A stretch of 64,000 bases of DNA from the IMG/VR virus record IMGVR_UViG_3300009314_000001. One strand, 5' to 3'. The position numbers were made by a program, and so were the translations under genes. Source of the DNA: a virus (lineage: Duplodnaviria; Caudoviricetes). Below are positions 2,219 through 43,034 of the stretch, in pieces; the first letter of the stretch is position 1, and every line of letters begins with the position of its first letter. The notes under the pieces are model-generated. The model was not told the DNA's origin, searched no databases, and was given only the letters and a program-made list of their open reading frames with translations.

Positions 2219-3241
2219 CTACTCCTCGTCGTGGTCGATATTTGACTCACGACGACCATCGGATTTTTGTTCAGCACCTTTATTAGTTGGAGAATCTGTA
2301 AATTCCAGACTCCGCAACTTTATAAATTTGATAAAATTGGTGACTGTTGGGCGAGAAAGCCCTGATCGTTGCACCAGTTTACCTATTATCCCATCATATG
2401 GTCTATCATCGTTGTATATCAGGTATTCCAGTGCATTAAGGATTGTTAAGAAGTCATCATGATACTTGCACATATCCCTAGCTTCACTAAGGAATCTAAT
2501 CATGATGTCACTGGTTGGTTTGGGCTTATTACTAAGATGGCCAATATACGAGGCAGAATTCTTCCTATCCCTAGCTTCTTTCTTAATATATGCTAGGATT
2601 ACCGTACGGGATATCTGTGACCACATATTAAACACTTTAGACATCCCACGGTATAATACCGTCTCAGATCCTCCATATCTGCCCTGCATCGGCTCTACAA
2701 TAGGAATTACCACCAATTTATGCTTACAATGCGGACAACACTTATGTAACTTCAGAGTTTCTTTCAGCGTTTTTATACCATATTCCTTATCGGCAGGCTC
2801 ATATAATAGAGAATCAGACGGCCGATCAGGACTAAAACAAGACCTACAATGTGGTCTAGCACGATACTTATATAGTGTCCGCTCTATTTGACACCACGCT
2901 GTCTGTAGAAGATCTCCAAAGGCAGATTCTTCTTGCCCAGGATATATCGTATGGAGGCCTTGTTTCCTGATAATTTGTCTAATTAGTTCAGTGGCATGTG
3001 ACATTATCTTGTCACGTAAGTTTACTTGTGTACATCCAGTCCAGATGTACTTGGTCAATTGCCACTCAACAATTTCATTGACAAAATATAATCGGCGGGT
3101 TGGTGCTGCATCACCAGGTAATGCACCATTTGCAGGGTTAGTCTGCGACGGCGATGAGTTGTTTTTGTCGTGTCCGTTTGAACAGCCGTTTGGGCACGAC
3201 ATATCGACGTTTGATGAGTTTTTCACCATCAATGCTTCCAC
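2219..3241 (-). CDS. Phage sigma-70-like factor (T4 gp55-like late sigma) with Cys-rich insertion
   Basis: Region-2-like DLLQTAWCQIERTLYKY and KVFNMWSQISRTVILAYIKKE. Adjacent to the UvsW-like helicase. True start may be downstream of 3241. Confidence 0.6.
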   Translation of the reverse strand: MEALMVKNSSNVDMSCPNGCSNGHDKNNSSPSQTNPANGALPGDAAPTRRLYFVNEIVEWQLTKYIWTGCTQVNLRDKIMSHATELIRQIIRKQGLHTIYPGQEESAFGDLLQTAWCQIERTLYKYRARPHCRSCFSPDRPSDSLLYEPADKEYGIKTLKETLKLHKCCPHCKHKLVVIPIVEPMQGRYGGSETVLYRGMSKVFNMWSQISRTVILAYIKKEARDRKNSASYIGHLSNKPKPTSDIMIRFLSEARDMCKYHDDFLTILNALEYLIYNDDRPYDGIIGKLVQRSGLSRPTVTNFIKFIKLRSLEFTDSPTNKGAEQKSDGRRESNIDHDEE

Positions 3242-4769
3242 CAGGAAACACTATGGTCGTACGATAACCGGCATTAACCATAGCCCGCAAACGAGCCTTC
3301 GAATGATCGTAAAGGTATTTGTTGCATCGGAAGTAAAAGTCAAAAACCCTACTACGACCTAATCGATTTCTCCGTACCGCACGGCCAATTTTCTGTACAA
3401 AGTCCGATTCTAACTTACCGCCGGTTGCAATAACTAAATTCTCACAACCACCCGATAAGTCTAGACCCCTATTAATTATTTTACCACCAATAAGTACATC
3501 TAACTCACGCCTCTCGAACGCACGCAGCATTTCATCACGACGGCGCTTAGTAGTCTGGCCATATATAAATGATGTCGAAAGACCACTATCCCTAATAATC
3601 TTCTCCAAATGCTTCCCAAGTGCTATCTTATCGACAAGGATTAATGTTCCGTCACCCTTATACCTATTGCAAAGAGCAGCTATGAGCTTATGAAAATCTC
3701 TATTCTCTGTCATCCATTCTTCATAAGCAATATCATATGCCGATCCCTCATGTATATCTCCATCAATCCCAAAACCCATTGAGAAATACTCACAAGGAAT
3801 AATCTGTCCTATCTTCTCCAACCTTCTTCTAGGCACTATCATAATAGGTGATCCAAGGTGCTCCTGCATCACCATAGCCTCCACAGGCTTCTCAGGATCA
3901 AAAGGAGTGCCAGAAAAACCATATCGACGTCTACCTTTAAACCAGTGCCGGAATAGCATCTTGAATTGATCTGATGTTGCCTTATCGCACTCATCAATTA
4001 TAATCATCTCGGCTTCTTTCACATATTTCCGGAGCTCTTTCGCATTCTTCTTGCGAGTTTGAAAAGCCTGTAATTGTGATTCCCACTTCTTCAGACGCTT
4101 TTCAAACTTCTCCTTCGGCTCTCCTTCCTCTTGATTAGGTGGCTGAGGAGGCATACCAGGGCTACCCAAGGATTGAATAAGTCCTACTACGATTAATTCA
4201 CCATTGGGGCGACGACCAGCATAAAATATACCAACCTCCTCGGCAACATCCCGAAGCTCAAGGCGTTGTTTCAATTGTGTTACAACCACTGTCTGATCAG
4301 CAATAATAACCGTAGGACATTCTATAGCCTTACAAATACCACATATAATCTCACCCTTGCCGCCACCAGTTGGTATATCATACACTCCACATTCTATCAG
4401 ACAGGCCTGCTTAATGCTCTTCACCTGATAATCGTGTAATTTTATTCCCGATAGGAAATCCTCAGTAACTTTATCGGGTGCGATAGGGCTATATTCCCAC
4501 TTCTCGCGATGATCCTTGACCACCAATGGTATATCATGCTTTCTGCAGAGCCCCCGAAGCATACTCAGAAGCGGCCTAGCTATCCTTTTCTTCGCTCTGT
4601 TGTATTTCCGATAAACTCCGTCCCACTGTCCCAATTGGTCTGGATCTATATGGACATTGGGGAGAGACACACTGAACTCTTCCCAAAGCATATCCTCTTC
4701 AGGTTCGGTCAGGTGATTGAAGTATAACCACTGGTTGCTTGTTACATTAGCTCTCATAATATCCTCCAA
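3138..4769 (-). CDS. uvsW: Superfamily 2 DNA helicase, UvsW-like
   Basis: LHDYQ (Q motif), PTGGGKG, IIIDECD, GFSGTP, RGLD, QKIGRAVR. Confidence 0.8.
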   Translation of the reverse strand: MEDIMRANVTSNQWLYFNHLTEPEEDMLWEEFSVSLPNVHIDPDQLGQWDGVYRKYNRAKKRIARPLLSMLRGLCRKHDIPLVVKDHREKWEYSPIAPDKVTEDFLSGIKLHDYQVKSIKQACLIECGVYDIPTGGGKGEIICGICKAIECPTVIIADQTVVVTQLKQRLELRDVAEEVGIFYAGRRPNGELIVVGLIQSLGSPGMPPQPPNQEEGEPKEKFEKRLKKWESQLQAFQTRKKNAKELRKYVKEAEMIIIDECDKATSDQFKMLFRHWFKGRRRYGFSGTPFDPEKPVEAMVMQEHLGSPIMIVPRRRLEKIGQIIPCEYFSMGFGIDGDIHEGSAYDIAYEEWMTENRDFHKLIAALCNRYKGDGTLILVDKIALGKHLEKIIRDSGLSTSFIYGQTTKRRRDEMLRAFERRELDVLIGGKIINRGLDLSGGCENLVIATGGKLESDFVQKIGRAVRRNRLGRSRVFDFYFRCNKYLYDHSKARLRAMVNAGYRTTIVFPGGSIDGEKLIKRRYVVPKRLFKRTRQKQLIAVAD

Positions 4770-4811
4770 GCACCTGTGGCAAACAAATAGCTACCGGTTA
4801 AATACGGGTAG

Positions 4812-5129
4812 TCAATCAAGGCGTCCTGGCATCATTCTAGCGATAGTGTCTATAGGATCAAACTGCGGCTCCTCATTCTCATCACATCCAAATAATTCTT
4901 CTATTCTATCTATAGACTTCGGATCATTTAGGTCAAAAGTATGTGGGCCTATTTTGAGAATGGTTTCATTAATAACAATAGCATCTGGATAAAGTCCTTC
5001 CACCACAGGACCATAGATATGAATCTGTACGCCCATATCAAATCCGACCGGATTATCATATGGGTCTAGCCAAGCCCTATGATCAGGACTCGTGTTGATG
5101 AGATCTACTATAGCCTTTAGTACATCCAC
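4812..5129 (-). CDS. Hypothetical protein
   Basis: 105-aa ORF abutting nrdJ (TAATG-type coupling). Confidence 0.6.
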   Translation of the reverse strand: MDVLKAIVDLINTSPDHRAWLDPYDNPVGFDMGVQIHIYGPVVEGLYPDAIVINETILKIGPHTFDLNDPKSIDRIEELFGCDENEEPQFDPIDTIARMMPGRLD

Positions 5130-8100
5130 TAAGTATCCTCAACGGTAACCACCACTTTCTTCTTTTGATCTGGCGGTGGCAACTCACATTTATCAGAATC
5201 ACAATAGTGGCTTCCAACAGCCTCAGTTATATAGTCACTGTAATCAGGCTCAGTGACTTTATTATTATATTCAACAACCTCTTCCGGTGTGCAAGCTTCG
5301 TAAGGGGCCTGAGGATAATCGTGATTCTCCGTAGGAAGGAATGAGAGACCTTTCAAGCTGTCCTCATACGATGCCAAGATCTTCGCGATTTCTTTAGCCT
5401 CGTGTTCATGAAATCGTATGGTACAAGATACCTGATTATCAGCCCAATACCTCTGATAGTCTACAACATTCTTGACTTGCTCCCAGATATTAACCTCGCC
5501 GACAGGCCTTACACCATTGCATTTTACGGCGAATGTTGCAACCATCGTCTTCGGATCAGTAACAGACAGTTCAACATGATAACCAGCATCTTGTAAGATC
5601 TTGATAAGTACACTATCATTCGATATTCTAACTCGCCGCCAATACGTACATGATTCTGGGTGATGTATACCAGGTGTGGCACCAACCATAAGACTAACAG
5701 TACCACTAGGCTTAACACTAGTCACTTTGATAGACTTAGGAACGCACAACCACTCGGAGTAGATCTCATCCCATCTGCGAATCTCGTTATATCCAGCATC
5801 GCAGAAATCCTTTAGCACTTTACGTCTGCCAAACCTCTCAAAAGCCTGGACAATACCACTCTGTGACAGGCCTATCCGGCGACTTCTTAACATCACTTGG
5901 TTAGTTCTGGCATTATGAGTTGGCAATAGTGTGACGGTCTTCCCATATAAGTATGCAAACTTCAAAGTCCTCATATATTCGTCGGCGGAATCATGATTAT
6001 TCGGAAATGTCTCGACGAGGCAGCACAATTCATAAGATTCAAGACTCTGTTCTCCACACTGCCCTACTTTATGACCTTCAACTACTACTTGATTCGTTTT
6101 CGGCTCAGTCAGACAATAAACAGTGTCTTCACCAAGGCATTCAACAGACTTAATTTTAGTATATCGACCAGTGTCTGAATTATTAGAACCAGTCTTACCA
6201 ACAAGCCATTGTCTTGCTTTAGTGATCTTAGACTGCTGAATGAAACCTACGTAGTCAAGAAATTTCGTGACTTGTTTTATTCCAGATATAATCAATTCCC
6301 ATTGTTCTTTTCGATTATATAATTTCTTGCCGCCTTTCCCATCATTCATCATCTGCTTAGATGATTTTCTTCGATGTTGAACAGTACTAGCTATACCAAG
6401 TTGACTAAACAGTAACCTGCAATCTAATAACAATTGCTGGTTAGACTGTGATATCCTAACCGATATTGTACCATTATCGCTAATTTGAACACCACCATCA
6501 GCAGATGCGAACCCCTTAAGAAATGCTGCTATCGTCTCACGCGATCCACACCATATACTAGAAGGAATATGATGCTTATCGCCAGATCTGACCCCATCGG
6601 CCACTAACAACCTGCCTAGCACTGTAGAACCAATATGTTCTTCGTCATGCTCAAAATGTTTTTGCTCTCTTTTCCAACCAGCATATACAGGTTGTTGATT
6701 TGTCGACTTTGTATGTGTGTGATATACTTCAAGCATCAAGCCTCTAAGTCTTGGCAAAACGTCACTAACATCATCGTCATAACACGCGCACTTTGCACGC
6801 ACTTGACCATCTTTTTGTGGTGATAATGAACCATCACCTATTACCCAGCCAGCCAACTCTGCATATGCCATATCATACAACACATTAGCAGAAGTTGCGT
6901 GAGTTGTTTGATTGAGTGGGATCATCATGCCAACTTCAAGATCCCCAAGTTTTACTCTTCGCTCAGAATACTCCACCTTCTTCTTGACTCTTGCCCTATC
7001 AAGAACGATGAATTCATGATTCCTAGTAGCATCAACCCAAGATCCATCTGTAAGGATTACTCGATACACAATATCAGCACCAACCCTATACACCTTTGTT
7101 GCTGGTGCCAATCCATTATCATTAACAATGACCTGCTCGCCATATTTCTCTAATGGATTACTACCTAGCCCATCATATTCAAGCGACCCTTGGCTAAGCC
7201 AAAGATCTTCAAGTCTTTCATAACCATATTGCGTCAAAATCCGCATACTTCCGGCGAAGCAGGGGTTTGTACCACATGCTCTACTATCTATACCAGGTCG
7301 CCTACCATCTATCATTCTACCGAAATCACGTATGTTATCCAACCATTGATAACCCGGCTCACCACTTATACCAGTACGTTCTGCAAAATCTGTATAATCC
7401 ATGCCTATTTCAGCAAAGATTGAATTGTTCGATGCCCATCTATGACTATTCCTAGCATTCCAAATATCGATGGCCTTCTGGAATCGATCACTACCTATAG
7501 CGATTTCGCCAAACATTATCGGTTCGGCACGCCAAATATCCTCATCTTCCAACTTCGTCACCACTTCCGTGAACACTTCAGCTTCTGTACTCGTCAGATC
7601 AGCTAAAGGACTCTTCATCATACAATATTCATAGTCCTTCGGGGAGCCTAATGCTATTTCTGAGGATCTGCGCACATTACCAGCTACTACACAGGCCCCT
7701 ATATAATTCATGATATCGACTATATCAACACTGGAGAGTGTCGCACCGATCCTAGACTCCAAATGTTCACGCACAAATGCATGCAGTGATTGTAGGATGC
7801 TTGGACCTGATGCTTTGCCACCAAATCCATTAATTGGTTCACCAGCTCTTCTAATCTCATCATAATTGAATAGAACATTACCGTCATCAGACTTTATAGT
7901 ATACGACCATATAAGACGACGCAGAGAGTCCACCCAACCTTCTCGAGAATCGGCGATCGTATAGATATTATCGATAGATGCGGGCTTATGAATTTGTATT
8001 CGATTAGCTCCCTTTGTATCAAACCCAACGCCGACACCAAGCATAGACATATCCATAAGAAAACAGAATGGCTCCGCTGGGTCAGATTCAATCTGATCAT

Positions 8101-26987: not shown

Positions 26988-27611
26988 TTACAGACTGATC
27001 TTCAGCTCATCACCAGGCTGACGTCTGTAAACTACCTCAAGAGCGGCCTTGATATGGGCACGATTAGTACCATCGAAATAGAGTGCTCTAGGATGCTCAA
27101 AATATACATTAAATTCATTCTGAGGTAATATAGCTAGGCCTCGTGGCCTACGTCCCAACCAAGCCTCAACATATGGCGGATGATCATCTATAAGGACTTT
27201 CCCATAATCTAGACTTTTGGCGACTACATCATCAGTACCAGTAACTACTCTGATTCCTATATCACCGGTCAAGGTTTCAGGAATCCTTCTATGGCACCAC
27301 TGAACTTTCTCTTGCCATGCTAAAGGACACCAAGACGGTCCTTTGGTAAGAATATGAATACTAAATCCTATTTCCTTAAGCATTTCCAGCACCATAAATC
27401 CAAGATGGAGTGTCTCCAATTCCTCCCACCATCCTGGTGTATTAACAATAGCCTTCCGACGCGCTTCAAGATGTCGTGGTAGACTATGAAGATCAGAATG
27501 CCGAAGAGTTTCACCAGGACCTGACATAGCCATAAGATCCCGATATAAGGCCTTTTCATAGTCAGCTAAAGTGCCGTCCATATCAACTAGTGCTATCTGA
27601 TTACCGTCCAT
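26988..27611 (-). CDS. HAD-family 5'(3')-deoxyribonucleotidase-like protein
   Basis: ALVDMDGTLAD, IHILTKGP, KVQWC, VLIDDHP. Confidence 0.8.
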   Translation of the reverse strand: MDGNQIALVDMDGTLADYEKALYRDLMAMSGPGETLRHSDLHSLPRHLEARRKAIVNTPGWWEELETLHLGFMVLEMLKEIGFSIHILTKGPSWCPLAWQEKVQWCHRRIPETLTGDIGIRVVTGTDDVVAKSLDYGKVLIDDHPPYVEAWLGRRPRGLAILPQNEFNVYFEHPRALYFDGTNRAHIKAALEVVYRRQPGDELKISL

Positions 27612-28722
27612 CTCTCTTTTTGGCCTCTTGAACTTCTGATCGGAATCGAACTAAATCATCAACAGTTAGCTTCTTCAACTGTCTATCGTATAACCGTCTA
27701 ACCTCGGACAGCGTTAATTTCAATTCAGTAATACATTCGTTCCAGTCCTTTATTACCATGTTCTTCCCGTCCTTCTTATATGGTATAGAAGGAGGAAGAC
27801 TAAACCATATTGGAAACCTGAGATTGCGTAGTAATAATTGATTCTCAATAATACTCTTTTTACCAGCTATATCATTATCGGGCGAGAGTATTATTCTCTC
27901 CTTAGGACCTAATAATTTAATCTTTTTGACCTGATTAGGACTTAGTGATGCACCTCCTGAAGCCAGTACTTGCTCTCCCAATGTGTTCTGATCAAATATC
28001 GATTCGGTAATAATAACATATCTAGCAGGTTCAATATCATCAAAACCATATAAATAATCTGCTCTGCCACCCTCCATCTTCCCAGTAATATTATCTTCAT
28101 TATCATATTCATATAAATCCGGGAATTCAAATCTCTTATTAATCCTCGATCGGCTTTGCCAATATACTAAGTCATCGAATTCATAGTATGGCCAATAAAC
28201 ATCCATCCCTAAGTAGTATAATTCGTGAGTCTCTATCCCCTCGTCAGTATAACCTCTAGACCGCAACCAACCCTTCAGAATATTAGCTTGAGGATCTTCC
28301 GCCGACCAAAGTAGCCTCGTGCCCCCAGGAAGGCTTACGGAAACGGTTTTCTTGGCCTCTGAGGCACCGGGCCGGTTTTCGGGCCTCATGTAAAGAGAAA
28401 CGCTCCCCGTGTCTCCGAGAACCTCGGAGAGGGCATCCTTCATAGAGCATTTCCGATAGACCCGGACGAATCTGATAAATGAGCAATTACGCTTACCAGT
28501 CCTAGGATTTATTGGACCGGCCCATTCATCCCCATGCCAAGAGTGGCAGACACCTTTATCAGGATTTATTTGGAAGCGGAATCTTGTATCGCCGTCGAAT
28601 GGGTCGCATATTTGATATTCCGCACCACCTTTGCGTACTTTATACTCGAAGTTTCGCTCTACCCAAGCGATAATTCTATTCGGTGGTATTTTCTTGTAGG
28701 CATGGTCAGGCATACATTTCAA
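27601..28722 (-). CDS. DNA primase (Toprim)
   Basis: YWQSRS, YLYGFD, VIITESIFDQ, ILSPDNDIAG, IKDWNE. Degenerate Zn-binding N-terminus. Confidence 0.8.
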   Translation of the reverse strand: MKCMPDHAYKKIPPNRIIAWVERNFEYKVRKGGAEYQICDPFDGDTRFRFQINPDKGVCHSWHGDEWAGPINPRTGKRNCSFIRFVRVYRKCSMKDALSEVLGDTGSVSLYMRPENRPGASEAKKTVSVSLPGGTRLLWSAEDPQANILKGWLRSRGYTDEGIETHELYYLGMDVYWPYYEFDDLVYWQSRSRINKRFEFPDLYEYDNEDNITGKMEGGRADYLYGFDDIEPARYVIITESIFDQNTLGEQVLASGGASLSPNQVKKIKLLGPKERIILSPDNDIAGKKSIIENQLLLRNLRFPIWFSLPPSIPYKKDGKNMVIKDWNECITELKLTLSEVRRLYDRQLKKLTVDDLVRFRSEVQEAKKRDGR

Positions 28723-28751: not shown

Positions 28752-30542
28752 CTAACGATCAGGAATAGTTCGAACATCTTTAGTATCTCCATTAGGATCT
28801 ACAGCAGTTGGTAGGATTTCTACCTCTTCATCTAGTACCACTTGTGCGACATATAAGTTTCTACCATTAATCACTGACATCACTCGAATGTTGATGTCAA
28901 TTTCTTCACCATCCTTGGTGACCATTTTGCCAGAAACTTGTATGATGCCGCCTTTATTTAATTTTTCCAGAAGATCCGGATACGTCATTCCTATTTGGTG
29001 TCTCTCGAATCTTCCTGGGGGGATTATTAGGTCAAGCTTTCTACCTATAGCTTCACCTTCTGTCCACCCAAGTAATTTTTGAGCACCATCATTCCACATA
29101 GCAATCGTACCATTCTTAGCATCACAAATAATATATGCTGTATCACTCATTTCAATTATTCTACGCCACTGATCTGCTCTCTTATTAGCCCTGTATATTG
29201 TTATGACTTGCCATAGGTCTTCCATCAAGAAAGTAACTTGCAAGACGTCATCTTGCGTATACGGTTTCTTCTTATTCCCAAGTCCTATAATTAGTCTACA
29301 TTTCCCTTCAGTAAAAACTGGTACAGACATATATCGGCTCAATACTACTTTATGCTCTGCAGGGTGCTCTGCATTTTCATCCATAGGCTTGCCACCAAAG
29401 TCATTGTTAACGTATGCCTTTTGTGTTCGAAATGGAATAGCCCATTGTGCTTCCCTTGCGATACCTTCTGCAATATCAAATTCAGCACGATCATTATGTA
29501 TCTTATAATCCAACTGCATATTTTCAGACCAAACAGCTACTGTCACCGTATTTTCATCATTTTCATGAACATAGCCTATATAACCATACCTACTACCAGT
29601 CAAGCGAATACATTCTTCTAGACAAAAATCCTTCAAACTCGCCTCAGTATGTGTACCAACATGGCTGTATAATTTAAGAGAAGCTTCTAATCTCTCTTGC
29701 GTTATACTAATCCTAACATCATTCACTTGTGCCACATGTAAACTATATCCAAGAAATGAAACCAAAAAAGCAATGATAAGAATGATTATAGCAGATGATA
29801 CTTTGCGTAATGTGTTTTCAGGCTTCCGCTTACGCGATTCATGTCTATCGTGGAGCCGCTTAAAAATCGGAGTAAGAGCACGAATGAACACAACAGAACC
29901 AACAAGTATGACCAAAACAGCAAAACTTGAAGCAATAACACCAGCCCTAATAAAAGGACTTCTGATTTCAGCAATATCCATTTTCGCCACTAATCCAAGA
30001 TCGCAACAAATCATATCAACGGGTTCATATGCTGCAAGGACATATACACCTCTATAATCGCGACCTACCATGGAACCAGAGTGACCATTTAGAACCATTT
30101 GCATAGGCTCAGCATAATTAGATTTTAAAGCTATGATCTTACGATCTTCTACACCTGTATGGCGATGACTAAGTAGAAATACTATATCACTACCTTCTCG
30201 TTCTGCTAATGTAAATTCTCCAGTTTTGCCAAAACCATTATATCTCCGATGTGCTTCAGTAATTTGAGTCAATGCTGCTTCAGATGCTTCATCTTGATCT
30301 TCAATTTGACTATGAGAGAATTTAGCTATTGACTCCATTAATCTGGCCTGGCTACGAGAAGTCTCAACTAATCTACGCTCAACTTCATGTACTGCAGCAT
30401 TATACGACAACACTATCGAGACAATACCAATAATCAATGACACACAAGTCATAACTATTAGTAAAAAATAAAATCTTTTACGATCATCACGTATCATCGT
30501 TTGGCTCATCATCCTCCTCCGACTCATCAGGAACCGGTTCAA
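28752..30542 (-). CDS. Membrane sensor protein: TM-Cache-TM-TM-GAF-PAS, no output domain
   Basis: Cache end GRDYRGVYVLAAYEPV..LGLVAKMDIAEI. GAF LTGSRYGYIG..YMSVPV..IIGLGNK..YTQDD. PAS IAMWNDGAQKLLGW...AIGRKLDLIIP..TKDGEEI. Real start probably 30497-30512. Confidence 0.8.
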   Translation of the reverse strand: MNRFLMSRRRMMSQTMIRDDRKRFYFLLIVMTCVSLIIGIVSIVLSYNAAVHEVERRLVETSRSQARLMESIAKFSHSQIEDQDEASEAALTQITEAHRRYNGFGKTGEFTLAEREGSDIVFLLSHRHTGVEDRKIIALKSNYAEPMQMVLNGHSGSMVGRDYRGVYVLAAYEPVDMICCDLGLVAKMDIAEIRSPFIRAGVIASSFAVLVILVGSVVFIRALTPIFKRLHDRHESRKRKPENTLRKVSSAIIILIIAFLVSFLGYSLHVAQVNDVRISITQERLEASLKLYSHVGTHTEASLKDFCLEECIRLTGSRYGYIGYVHENDENTVTVAVWSENMQLDYKIHNDRAEFDIAEGIAREAQWAIPFRTQKAYVNNDFGGKPMDENAEHPAEHKVVLSRYMSVPVFTEGKCRLIIGLGNKKKPYTQDDVLQVTFLMEDLWQVITIYRANKRADQWRRIIEMSDTAYIICDAKNGTIAMWNDGAQKLLGWTEGEAIGRKLDLIIPPGRFERHQIGMTYPDLLEKLNKGGIIQVSGKMVTKDGEEIDINIRVMSVINGRNLYVAQVVLDEEVEILPTAVDPNGDTKDVRTIPDR

Positions 30543-30837
30543 TATGGAGATTTATCTTCCCCTGAAAGAAAATCTTCATTAAATCAAGTGCCGTTGCCCC
30601 ACCTATTCCAGCTAGCCCACTCACGGCTAACAAAAATGGTATATTTCCTTTGCCTTCAAAGTAATTATACCACATTAAAGCAACAATTAATCCAATGATT
30701 CCACTATATAAGATAGACGATAAGACGGATCTGAGATTCAGATCTTCTTTACCTCTCAGTAAAGCTGCTAGTCCTCCAAGAGCTGCGACGCCGAAGGCCG
30801 ACATGAAGACTAGTATATGAGTAAGAGTCCACACCAT
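30487..30837 (-). CDS. Holin-like small membrane protein (3 TM)
   Basis: 116 aa with three hydrophobic segments and an acidic C-tail. Pattern GGLAALL..SGIIGLIV..AVSGLAGIGG resembles LydA-type phage holins. Confidence 0.55.
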   Translation of the reverse strand: MVWTLTHILVFMSAFGVAALGGLAALLRGKEDLNLRSVLSSILYSGIIGLIVALMWYNYFEGKGNIPFLLAVSGLAGIGGATALDLMKIFFQGKINLHIEPVPDESEEDDEPNDDT

Positions 30838-30872
30838 AAGTTAACCCAGTCATAAGTTAACCCAGTCATAAA
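30835..30872. repeat. 16-bp tandem repeat (2 copies plus partial) filling the REC-holin intergenic space
   Basis: cataagttaacccagt x2 + cataaa. Confidence 0.9.
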
Positions 30873-31364
30873 TTATCCTACACAAGCATGAAGGCACAAA
30901 CCATACACGAAAAGCCCAAACAAACTAAGTATGATACACCAAAAGAACACACACCTCCAAAACCTAATTTTCCTCTCCTTCAGCAACAGATAAGCTTGAA
31001 CAATAAGGGCATTTCCTATAAATTGCATATTCCCTTGACCCTTCCATAGGTATGTCAATGCTCCTGCATTATTAGCTTCCAGAATTAACTCAAGCTCTTC
31101 ACTACCTGAAAAGACGACAACAGGGGGACTTTTATGTCGTCTATATCTAATATATTCAATAGTTTGTTTAGGTGTTGAATCTGGCAGATTCAGATCTAAC
31201 AAAATCAAATCTGCATGTCTTTCACGTCCATGTGCATCATGTAGAGTACTAACAACCTCCAATGATATCAACTTATTCTTATCATTGTGTTCTAATACTC
31301 GCTGCATTAGAGCGATATCGACTTGTAAGTCCTCGACCCACAATATCTTCATCGATTTCATCAT
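30873..31364 (-). CDS. Response-regulator receiver domain with C-terminal TM anchor
   Basis: KILWVED, LILLDLNLPD (phospho-Asp), VVVFSG, AGALTYLWK. C-terminal FWRCVFFWCIILSLFGLFVYGLCL. Confidence 0.85.
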   Translation of the reverse strand: MMKSMKILWVEDLQVDIALMQRVLEHNDKNKLISLEVVSTLHDAHGRERHADLILLDLNLPDSTPKQTIEYIRYRRHKSPPVVVFSGSEELELILEANNAGALTYLWKGQGNMQFIGNALIVQAYLLLKERKIRFWRCVFFWCIILSLFGLFVYGLCLHACVG

Positions 31365-31389: not shown

Positions 31390-32265
31390 TCATGATATCG
31401 TAAGAACAAATTTCCTGCTCACCCTAGTCGAACCATTCGGCAGCGTCAAAGTGATGTAATACCTATATGTCCCCTTTAAAAAACGAGACGTGTTGAGATC
31501 ATACTGGACTACCCACGGATTTGACCTATACGATCCTTGTCTGATACCAATCCTACATGCCTCAGCATCGGCAAGCAATTCATTGTGCTGAGTTTCTATC
31601 GTGATAGTCGGCTGCAAAAATGGAATGATAGGATTAACAAGATTGAAATTATAATCATACAAAGGCAAAGGCATAAGCCCAACCTCAAGAGGCCTCGCCT
31701 CAGGTGTATGAAATTTCTGATCTAGTGGTTCAAAACCAAACCGAATAGTCTGTAACCGATCGTCGCAAAACCATTCTTCTGGATAAACCCAAAACCGATG
31801 ACAACACCTTAATAACAATGGGTCATAGGTGTCCTCATCCATATCACAATCTGTAGCATCCGTACCTAACGCTCCACAAGGATTATCGGCGAAATAGTAC
31901 CAAACATCAAAATAGACATCAGGTACTTCAAAGTCCTCTGAAATAGCATAGGGAAGGTGATATCTGCCAGCTACCGGTGTATCATCCTCTGATGGCTCTG
32001 TGCAGCAGTCGCCAGCTTCAGAAGCTATCTCATGGCGACAAATTGGAGATGGGTATAGAGGATCATCGAGATCAACAACAGGCACAGTAGCCACCAAATT
32101 ATGTGGAACCACCGATGACTTATAGATCTCAATTTGCCTGATAGCGTATGGATCAGTTAATACCCCATTCTTTCGGAAATCCACGTTTAGATCAACCACA
32201 CTGCCTCTTCTGGCAGAGATTCGTGGATACGCACCAGTAAGCTGTGCACATGTCATACCACACAC
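31390..32265 (-). CDS. Hypothetical, probable virion/baseplate protein
   Basis: 291 aa, beta-rich and Cys-rich. CAAAGATA motif upstream. Follows the gp26/gp51-like genes. Confidence 0.55.
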   Translation of the reverse strand: MCGMTCAQLTGAYPRISARRGSVVDLNVDFRKNGVLTDPYAIRQIEIYKSSVVPHNLVATVPVVDLDDPLYPSPICRHEIASEAGDCCTEPSEDDTPVAGRYHLPYAISEDFEVPDVYFDVWYYFADNPCGALGTDATDCDMDEDTYDPLLLRCCHRFWVYPEEWFCDDRLQTIRFGFEPLDQKFHTPEARPLEVGLMPLPLYDYNFNLVNPIIPFLQPTITIETQHNELLADAEACRIGIRQGSYRSNPWVVQYDLNTSRFLKGTYRYYITLTLPNGSTRVSRKFVLTIS

Positions 32266-32281
32266 TCCCTAAAAGCTATAA

Positions 32282-32289
32282 TATCTTTG
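32282..32289 (-). promoter_or_regulatory. Putative late promoter motif CAAAGATA
   Basis: Intergenic, upstream of the RBS of the 32265 gene. Confidence 0.45.
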
Positions 32290-41365: not shown

Positions 41366-42201
41366 TCTTCCTCAAATATCTTTGTTGGGTCAACTGATGT
41401 TGTGCCAGTTAACACTATTGCAACAAAGCACATAGCTTCACAATATTGATATAAAGCTCTTAGTTTAGCCTGTACTCTATCATCATTCAGCAACCTAGCA
41501 GCTTTCACTTCGACAATTAATATTTTATCAACTAATTTTATCATGAAATCAGGATAATAAATCCTTTTCTTTTCATCATGAAGATACTCGATCTTAATAG
41601 AATCTTTTGAAAAAGTTAGAACTCTATTATCGTTATCGAGGAATAATGCTACATCTTTTTCCCAACTGGAATGACACCAAAAAGCACCACCTTTTTTAGT
41701 TTCTAATCTACAACCACGTCTCCCCCGCATCCGTTTCTTACATGCTTGTTCAGAAGACATGTCAAAACCTTGAGATTCTTTATATCTGCGAGCAGAGCAC
41801 TCTAATCGTAATTTCTTAGATTTAGTTATAGCGAATTTTCTTAACCAATCACCAACACATTTAGAAGATACACCCAACTCACTAGCAAGCTCGGTTCTAG
41901 ATTTGTTTTGAATTATATAAGCATCGTACAGCCAATCTTTGTTGTTTAATTTACCAATCGCTTCTATTGATACAGAACGAACAAATTTATCAAGATTAGA
42001 TTTTTTAATATCACGCGGTCTGTAATTTATAGGTATATTGTGTCGTTTTAATGCAGAAACTACAGCCTTTTTACCACATCCTACAAGAGCACCTATTTGT
42101 CTGGTAGAAAGAGCAGGATAATATCGCTCAAGCCAACTTTTATCTAATAAAAAATCTGCTGCTTCACCTAATTGTGCTTTATAATTAGTAGGTATTTTCA
42201 T
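41362..42201 (-). mobile_element. Putative homing endonuclease: tandem HTH repeats plus PD-(D/E)xK (TnsA/gp4-like) nuclease
   Basis: Twice WL...Y......S..E/Q.A..LG.....V...L..F/H.I. HSSWE..YYPDF..IVEVKA. AT-rich; flanked by a 16-bp near-duplication. Confidence 0.65.
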
Positions 42202-43034
42202 ATAATATCTTTGATCAGAGAACCACCAAACATTAATATAGGCAATAATATATTCCAGATCAAAACCGGATATGGCTCTCCTAAATTAAGTGCTTTCTCT
42301 ATAATTGTCTCTTTGACCGCATTTGCCTCTTGAACCAAATCGGAGCCATCATAATTAATAGAGCCCCCATCAGGTGTAGGCATACCGGCAACCTTTCGTC
42401 TAGCCATCCCCACAGCATGTTTTACCTCAGCTTCCATCATCTCATAACAAATTGCTCTGGCCTGAGGACTCCGAAAATGATTGACTACCGGGATATACAG
42501 AATTACAACGGGGAATGCCCCCTTAGGTGTTGGGTAAAGCCTTATCAATTGATCTTTAGCATCGAGTGAATCACCCTCAACATTCCCCTCTACCTCACCT
42601 ATTACTTCCCAGTGTCCTTCCGTCCCAAGAACTTTTTGAGAGAACTTACGATACGACTGTAGTAAATGATAATCGGTAAGAATATTCTGAATACCAGAAA
42701 TATTACCAATATTAAACAAAAAGCTCTCAGCGCCGAAAACATCGTCTATTCTCGTCGTTACTGGATCCCAAGATACTTCCTGTACCCAATATGCGTCAGC
42801 CGGTAACGGATATGTGGACTGCAATGGAGTAGTCCAAAATAATGCTAATTTTTGTTCCCTCGGAAAATAACCAGAAATAAAATCACCAGCAACCCGAAAA
42901 ATCGTTTCCCATTGATCCTCAGTAATTTCTACTTCGGTTACGGGGAAGGCAAGCTTTGATAGGACATACTTTTTCATCGGCTCGCTTCGAACCTTCAAGA
43001 CCGATGGTAGGTCTGCTGGTGCAAGTATGGCCAT
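42198..43034 (-). CDS. Neck / head-tail adaptor, gp13-like
   Basis: KYVLSKLAFPVTEVEITEDQ; MPTPDGGSINYDGSDLVQEA. Confidence 0.75.
   Translation of the reverse strand: MAILAPADLPSVLKVRSEPMKKYVLSKLAFPVTEVEITEDQWETIFRVAGDFISGYFPREQKLALFWTTPLQSTYPLPADAYWVQEVSWDPVTTRIDDVFGAESFLFNIGNISGIQNILTDYHLLQSYRKFSQKVLGTEGHWEVIGEVEGNVEGDSLDAKDQLIRLYPTPKGAFPVVILYIPVVNHFRSPQARAICYEMMEAEVKHAVGMARRKVAGMPTPDGGSINYDGSDLVQEANAVKETIIEKALNLGEPYPVLIWNILLPILMFGGSLIKDII

Follow-up and report, generated by a model that had tools for sequence, protein, structure and literature searches.

Does the holin-like gene of an uncultured phage work together with the two signalling genes that flank it, and if so, with which of them? 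The question is raised by a cassette at positions 28752-31364 of a 64,000-nucleotide stretch of viral DNA (the window; IMG/VR virus record IMGVR_UViG_3300009314_000001). The minus strand of the cassette encodes a membrane-anchored receiver, a small holin-like protein and a membrane sensor with GAF and PAS domains, in this order. An initial annotation of this DNA had proposed that the three coupled genes may form one kinase-less functional module. The window is part of a 122,317-base IMG/VR virus record that was rated 34% complete, and the negative results given below for the 122-kb record cover this share of the genome. The conserved unit was found to be the pair of holin-like gene and PAS gene, not the trio. 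This pair may consist of a holin and a ligand-sensing (oxygen or redox) antiholin-like partner, with the receiver as an optional extra input; the probability of this reading is put at about 0.5.

Conservation of the holin-like/PAS pair

The holin-like gene (30487..30837, minus strand) encodes 116 amino acids and is followed by the sensor gene (28752..30542, minus strand). Counted from the first TTG, the sensor comprises 596 amino acids. A start at one of the ATG codons at 30512, 30509 or 30497 is more likely and gives a protein of 581-586 amino acids; the overlap of the two genes, from the start of the sensor to the stop of the holin-like gene, amounts to 11-26 nucleotides. The same order, a holin-like gene and then a PAS gene with an overlapping start, was found in 10 other uncultured phage contigs (the P0121 contig, L002, L003, L004, L053, L054 and L237-L240). 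These loci include every relative of at least 42% identity with a readable context. In its minimal form the partner has 160-215 amino acids, with a short basic N-terminus, one helix, a PAS domain and no enzymatic output. Being encoded with the holin-like gene and overlapping it at the start, here and at the 10 other loci, the sensor shows an antiholin-like trait. The PAS protein is read as the cognate partner of the holin-type protein on account of where its gene lies, how it is coupled and how it is conserved. Of the functional module proposed initially, a link between these two proteins is supported by the recurring, translationally coupled pair; the receiver was never present at the other loci. 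The three genes occurred together nowhere else, and the trio is not supported as a unit. A search of the full-text literature yielded no paper linking phage PAS domains with holins.

The genes around the pair are at most loci auxiliary genes of large phages, such as those for a sulfotransferase, RmlA, thymidylate kinase and 2H-SAK/InPase proteins. In L238 a protein of 556 amino acids with 2H-SAK phosphoesterase and InPase domains is encoded directly after the pair (3874-5544). The open reading frame (ORF) of 515 amino acids after the pair in L237 (1096-2643) has an N-terminus similar to that of the L238 protein. Upstream of the pair in L003 (1-1500) lies an ORF open at its 5' end, which by eye only looks like a fragment of an intein-containing gene.

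Assignment of the holin-like protein

The holin-like protein has three helices (residues 8-26, 37-55 and 66-84) and an acidic C-terminal tail (30490-30579). It fits the small size, the two or more membrane helices and the charged C-terminal tail of LydA-like holins. The match to PF16083 (LydA holin) had an E value of 5e-5 and a score of 23.7 bits, with a curated cut-off of 28.4. The PHROG holin families phrog_6384 and phrog_785, for which no curated cut-off exists, were matched with E values of 2.5e-6 and 7.7e-6. An exhaustive search gave a family of 279 representatives, nearly all of them 100-150 amino acids long. Among 33 aligned members, 29 matched phrog_6384 (best value 2.7e-10) and 11 matched PF16083; three PHROG holin families were matched consistently across the family. 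By remote homology and by shape, the protein thus appears to have a remote but consistent kinship to annotated holin families, in agreement with the three-helix holin-like product described in the initial annotation. No relative was detectable by tblastn in 50,697 GenBank phage genomes. A scan of a genome collection for the family returned nothing, so that prophage or cellular copies are not in evidence.

Some further genes were seen near distant members of the family. Two genes upstream of one of these, in L025, a match to the actin-like Volactin was obtained (3050-4051; PF25216, E value 1e-61). ORFs of 333-346 amino acids, similar in size, occupy the corresponding position in L010, L012, L013, L016, L023, L030, L031 and others, and the one in L031 had no PHROG match. 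In L047 (5284-5805) and L070 (5284-5673) the distant holin-like gene is preceded by a YpsA/SLOG-family gene and followed by a gene for a multi-helix membrane protein, which in L047 is cysteine-rich and without a family match.

Relationship of the PAS domain to heme-binding sensors

The PAS domain of the sensor comprises residues 458-562 (28857..29171, minus strand) and matched PF00989 with 37.1 bits. When a profile of the partner PAS family was compared with the PDB, DosP (2.5e-14), FixL (6e-14) and FG214 (9e-12) came ahead of all other PAS domains. The best PDB match of the window PAS alone was the heme domain of Bradyrhizobium FixL, and FixL was also its only specific NCBIfam match. The window motif 'RFERH' aligned on FixL 'RSRH', which places H515 (codon 28998-29000) on the heme ligand H200; the same residue lined up with the histidine of DosP 'RPAH' (H77). 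This proximal histidine was kept in nine of 10 aligned PAS sequences, that of the window included. An AlphaFold model of the window PAS had a predicted local distance difference test (pLDDT) score of 74, and its top 11 Foldseek matches were FixL, FG214 and DosP, all of them heme-PAS proteins. FG214 is a recently described PAS protein that binds heme b and responds to redox state and ligands (PMC13060918). Taken together, the sequence and model comparisons suggest that the PAS domains of the window and of the partners belong to the heme-binding FixL/DosP/FG214 type. H515 would then be the candidate ligand of a bound heme.

Chimeric origin of the sensor

The N-terminal part of the sensor consists of a first transmembrane helix (TM1, residues 27-45), a periplasmic alpha/beta domain (46-201) and a second helix (TM2, 202-220), encoded at 29883..30464. 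It is followed by a basic loop (221-247) and a third helix (TM3, 248-266; Kyte-Doolittle mean 2.49) at 29745..29882, where the AlphaFold confidence was low, and by a GAF domain (298-447) at 29202..29651, all on the minus strand. The GAF domain matched PF13185 with 46.8 bits (cut-off 28.6) and was modelled with a high pLDDT. Cache, GAF and PAS domains had been proposed for this protein. The latter two were confirmed by profile; for Cache there was no Pfam match at E<0.1 and no PDB sequence match for residues 46-201. The AlphaFold model of these residues is nevertheless PDC-like, with a long helix and a five-strand sheet with short helices, placed between two long helices. The pLDDT of the input module was mostly above 85, and WalK was among the Foldseek hits of the whole sensor model. 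The ORF stops 34 residues beyond the PAS domain, and no HisKA, HATPase_c, GGDEF or HD match was found in the sensor with Pfam, as the initial annotation had said. A protein scan of viral contigs with the sensor gave no match.

Over residues 20-230 the sensor shares 45-52% identity with the input part at the N-terminus of histidine kinases and of GGDEF proteins/diguanylate cyclases. These homologues come from Thermodesulfobacteriota, Nitrospinota, Acidobacteriota, Planctomycetota and other phyla, and many belong to marine or sediment bacteria. Residues 20-455 are collinear with several bacterial kinases that run on into HisKA and HATPase, and the GAF domain shares 27-35% identity with its counterparts in this kinase family. 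The PAS domain has another affiliation. In a tree it grouped with the partners from L003, L237 and L238 (support 90/89), apart from the PAS domains of the kinases. The grouping (L003,(L237,L238)) recurred in a poorly resolved tree of the holin-like proteins. The comparisons show that the sensor is a chimera, in which a bacterial histidine kinase has contributed the input half, without the kinase core, and a phage PAS partner the remainder.

TM3 takes the place of a soluble linker in the cellular homologues; in P0032 and P0073 a gap or a non-hydrophobic linker is found at this position. The flanks of TM3 carry a charge of +5 on its N-terminal and 0 on its C-terminal side. With these charges and an odd helix count, the GAF and PAS domains are predicted to be periplasmic. 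The charge balance points the same way in six of nine minimal partners and is neutral in two, and it is clearly opposite only in L054. By eye only, TM3 with its basic flank resembles the anchor of the L003 partner.

Properties of the receiver

The receiver gene (30873..31364, minus strand) encodes a tail-anchored REC protein of 163 amino acids. The REC domain (residues 7-110; 31035..31346) matched PF00072 with 42.9 bits, above the curated cut-off of 30.2. Residues E11, D12, D57, S86 and K108 line up with those of the catalytic site in LuxO and KdpE; all five are intact, and the phospho-acceptor D57 is encoded at 31194-31196. A hydrophobic C-terminal helix (residues 138-156; 30897..30953; Kyte-Doolittle mean 2.37) provides the anchor. 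The membrane-anchored receiver with intact catalytic residues of the initial annotation was thereby recovered in full.

In a large protein collection the identical receiver protein was the only one found; it is encoded on 12 contigs with lengths up to 340 kb. Relatives were detected neither in viral contigs by protein scan nor in GenBank phages by tblastn, and no receiver domain was present within 5 kb of the viral-contig loci of the holin-like family that were searched. What connects the receiver with the holin-like/PAS pair is its position only. The cassette had also been called kinase-less, and indeed no HisKA or HATPase_c kinase was found in the 122-kb record. The idea that receiver and sensor are the two halves of one split host kinase was dropped, as the receiver is unlike the REC domains of hybrid kinases in the sensor family.

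These properties of sensor and receiver also bear on an explanation by interference with host signalling. The kinase-less sensor might be a dominant-negative decoy that pairs with a related host histidine kinase via the helices and the periplasmic domain that they share, the receiver a phosphate sink and the holin-like gene a mere neighbour. A decoy of this kind would agree with the bacterial kinase character of the first 215-230 sensor residues (45-52% identity, both helices included), with the cleanly missing kinase core, with the complete set of catalytic residues in the receiver and with the lack of a phage kinase in the 122-kb record. It is at odds with the PAS domain and the gene position, which match those of the holin partner in 10 other phages, with the overlap of the sensor start and the holin-like stop, and with TM3, which is absent from all cellular homologues; nor does the receiver resemble the hybrid-kinase REC domains. 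This explanation is considered unlikely.

Insertion of the cassette in a variable slot

The neighbouring genes in the window are those of a baseplate hub of T4 type, gp19-like proteins of the tail tube, a sheath protein, a primase and a 5'-nucleotidase. These genes therefore assign the source to a T4-like jumbo phage with a genome of about 350 kb. Among public runs, only marine DNA metagenomes contain the stretch; no RNA dataset is listed with them. No DNA match to the region was found in GenBank phages.

On the left the cassette is bounded by a gene for 291 amino acids of the baseplate/tail module (31390..32265, minus strand), which is kept in related jumbo phages. The right boundary is a DNA primase gene (27601..28722, minus strand; phrog_47, 2.4e-26), whose synteny is kept as well. 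Eighty related loci were fetched with the sheath protein as anchor (54-76% identity). The order of hub gene, 291-amino-acid gene, variable gap and primase gene was kept in more than 40 of the 80, with the 291-amino-acid gene adjoining the hub gene. Receiver, holin-like gene and sensor were all absent from these more than 40 loci with conserved flanks. In four complete relatives (354-408 kb) the holin-like family, receiver domains and PAS domains of the window type were likewise all missing. The 2.6-kb cassette is an insertion particular to this lineage; the slot that it occupies, between a conserved tail-module gene and the primase gene, is variable. Besides this insertion, the initial annotation had overlooked the FixL/DosP heme type of the PAS domain, the chimeric nature of the sensor and the sensor helix 248-266.

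In the closest related jumbo phages the slot between the 291-amino-acid gene and the primase gene contains a gene for a soluble PAS_3/ARNT-like protein of about 170 amino acids. It overlaps a gene for a coiled-coil protein of 130-145 amino acids with a C-terminal membrane helix. The two genes are located at L081 17099-18026, L088 11985-12963, L092 17034-17970 and L150 17129-18029. In L094 (19316-19729), from the 354-kb relative, the tail-anchored coiled-coil counterpart seems to be disrupted by stop codons or a change of frame. Other cargo was seen in L084 (17604-21425), with three tandem paralogues of 361-468 amino acids, of which the one scanned gave a DUF982 match, and in L112 (6864-12678) and L119 (16771-22349), with two giant proteins each (693-1176 amino acids). 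An orthology of the window PAS with the slot PAS of the relatives was rejected, the latter being soluble and PAS_3/ARNT-like. The slot PAS proteins gave no match to the window sensor at E<1e-3 and none to the heme-PAS profile. The window genes are a non-orthologous replacement, and the slot tends to hold a sensor and a small membrane protein.

Gene arrangement and expression signals

Receiver, holin-like gene and sensor are consecutive minus-strand ORFs with intact frames, tightly packed and equipped with ribosome-binding sites, exactly where three coupled genes had been annotated initially. The spacing is 25 nucleotides between the upstream gene and the receiver gene, 35 nucleotides between the receiver and the holin-like gene, and 29 nucleotides between the sensor and the primase gene. 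Among the 12 contigs carrying the receiver protein the cassette was read in four places, which had an identical gene set. The 12 contigs stem from several marine samples; in view of this and of the agreement between the four places, the cassette is not an assembly artefact.

The lack of a kinase core, a receiver without relatives and the limitation of the cassette to one phage lineage might suggest that the genes are inert leftovers of horizontally acquired host genes, that is, a decaying kinase fragment and a stray receiver. Decay is contradicted by the three intact frames, by the retention of catalytic and fold-defining residues, by the tight packing with ribosome-binding sites and by the recurrence of the same receiver on contigs of several samples and of the same cassette at the four places read. 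This explanation is very improbable.

From the receiver stop to the holin-like start, a 16-nucleotide unit is repeated 2.6 times (30835..30875; Tandem Repeats Finder score 75). The repeat puts two out-of-frame ATG codons directly before the ATG of the holin-like gene, which open ORFs of 19 and 34 codons. These short ORFs could damp the translation of the holin-like gene. A scan for sigma-70 promoters and terminators gave nothing exceeding chance, and the motif CAAANATAAT was not enriched. The minus strand of the window has three exact copies of the word CAAAGATATT (32280-32289, 41375-41384 and 42204-42213). One copy lies 15 nucleotides before the start of the 291-amino-acid gene, which heads the run of genes containing the cassette, and CAAAGATATT is a possible late-promoter element.

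Proposed function of the pair

As a holin with an antiholin-like partner, the pair would work as follows. The PAS protein would act as a ligand-dependent regulator of the holin-type protein, most likely via direct contact. The time of membrane permeabilisation would be shifted by oxygen, by the redox state or by a gas as ligand of the heme. In the window the PAS partner has been enlarged by the fused kinase input half (helix, periplasmic domain, helix and GAF) and by the third helix. If the receiver takes part, it would make the phosphorylation state of the host, set by a host kinase or by acetyl phosphate, one more signal at the membrane.

Several observations weigh against this interpretation. 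The score of the holin-like protein is under the PF16083 cut-off, and its tail is acidic, not basic. No Amidase_2, Phage_lysozyme or SLT endolysin was found in the 122-kb record, and no endolysin is encoded in the cassette. An endolysin gene adjoins only one of the 11 pair loci, and a PAS partner is missing from about 40 family members of viral contigs that are more distantly related. The four complete related phages have no family member, so that the clade can lyse without the holin-like gene. The receiver was never seen with the pair elsewhere and is limited to one phage. The predicted periplasmic location would be unusual for both a GAF and a heme-type PAS domain. Read by eye, the distal residues of the heme pocket (FixL R220; DosP M95 and R97) aligned with small gaps and varied among the partners. 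Distal residues of this type also vary among known heme-PAS proteins.

Some of these points would suit a membrane device that does not serve lysis, such as a regulator of membrane energy resembling Cid/Lrg, a gated channel or a switch of the superinfection-exclusion or abortive kind, carried as an accessory gene set. The absence of the holin-like gene from the four complete relatives, the other cargo that relatives have in the variable slot, the auxiliary, non-lysis neighbours at most pair loci, the PF16083 score and acidic tail, and the negative search of the 50,697 GenBank phage genomes are all compatible with it. The consistent matches to three PHROG holin families speak for a holin instead, as does L053, where an Amidase_2 endolysin is encoded directly upstream of the pair. 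Lysis genes are, moreover, often scattered in large phages. The LydA gene of phage P1 is not linked to its endolysin gene either (PMC9025707). A non-lysis device is therefore regarded as improbable.

The reading as holin and antiholin-like partner could also be carried further, to a multi-input device for the lysis decision. The periplasmic ligand domain, GAF, heme-PAS and phospho-receiver would then converge in the membrane on one holin, and TM3 would have been selected to put the GAF and heme-PAS domains in the periplasm, giving an RI-like antiholin with a gas or redox cofactor and an oxygen- or redox-timed lysis by marine phages. If true, this would be the first periplasmic FixL-type sensor, but so extended a version is distinctly unlikely.

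The simpler reading as a regulated holin has consequences of its own. A holin-type protein coupled to a cofactor-type sensor as a recurring phage module would be new. If the reading is true, the timing of lysis, or of some other event at the membrane, depends in uncultured phages on oxygen, redox or small-molecule cues, and in marine ecology viral lysis would be linked to chemical gradients. The minimal pairs of L003 and L238 would be a compact two-gene system that can be tested, and the version in the window shows how a phage may rebuild it from parts of a host kinase.

Comparison with known systems

Signal-dependent timing of lysis has been worked out at the molecular level almost exclusively in the case of T4-type lysis inhibition. 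In staphylococci, LytSR controls LrgAB and CidAB, holin-like membrane proteins that are thus under signal transduction reading the state of the membrane. There the control is transcriptional and exerted by a complete kinase-regulator pair, the system is cellular and not of a phage, and the holin family is a different one.

The closest counterpart of the pair is LydA-LydB of phage P1, the prototype of PF16083 (PMC9025707). LydA is likewise small and has several helices, a remote profile match puts it in one superfamily with the window protein, and the gene of the LydA regulator follows directly. The P1 pair is located in a late operon with morphogenesis genes and is unlinked to the endolysin gene; the window pair appears to be placed likewise. 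The match of the window protein to PF16083 is, however, under the curated cut-off, and LydB is without a membrane helix or any known domain, whereas the window partner is membrane-anchored and carries a PAS domain in addition to GAF and a periplasmic domain. In phage T4 the holin T is kept inactive by its antiholins, RI and RIII (PMC8385771, PMC11413866), a partner with an N-terminal signal or anchor sensing the cue. T and RI have no relation to the window pair in sequence or fold. T is a class III holin with one helix and a large periplasmic domain, and RI has no cofactor-type sensor domain and a gene that does not adjoin t.

For the PAS domain the closest matches in sequence and structure are FixL, DosP (EcDOS) and FG214 (PDB 1dp6, 8js5, 1v9y, 9clo and 10jx; PMC13060918), with the proximal histidine aligned. 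These proteins drive a kinase, a phosphodiesterase or a helix-turn-helix domain in the same polypeptide, while the phage PAS protein is without output and has a holin-type partner. In contrast to them the phage PAS is predicted to be periplasmic, its distal pocket is not clearly kept and its heme type is deduced from sequence and model. The bacterial kinases that share the periplasmic domain (such as P0002, P0032, P0073, L157 and L168) are collinear over helix, periplasmic domain, helix and GAF, with 30-52% identity. The phage sensor differs from them by the lack of HisKA/HATPase, by the extra third helix and by a C-terminal PAS domain from the holin-partner lineage. The receiver has an intact phosphorylation site and no output domain, like the contact-acting single-domain regulators CheY, DivK, CpdR and Spo0F. 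Unlike these it is encoded by a phage and anchored in the membrane by a C-terminal helix, and no kinase or relative was found for it in the searches described. What the window adds is a LydA-like identity for the membrane partner of the PAS protein, a sensor fused to the input half of a kinase, and a receiver gene beside the pair.

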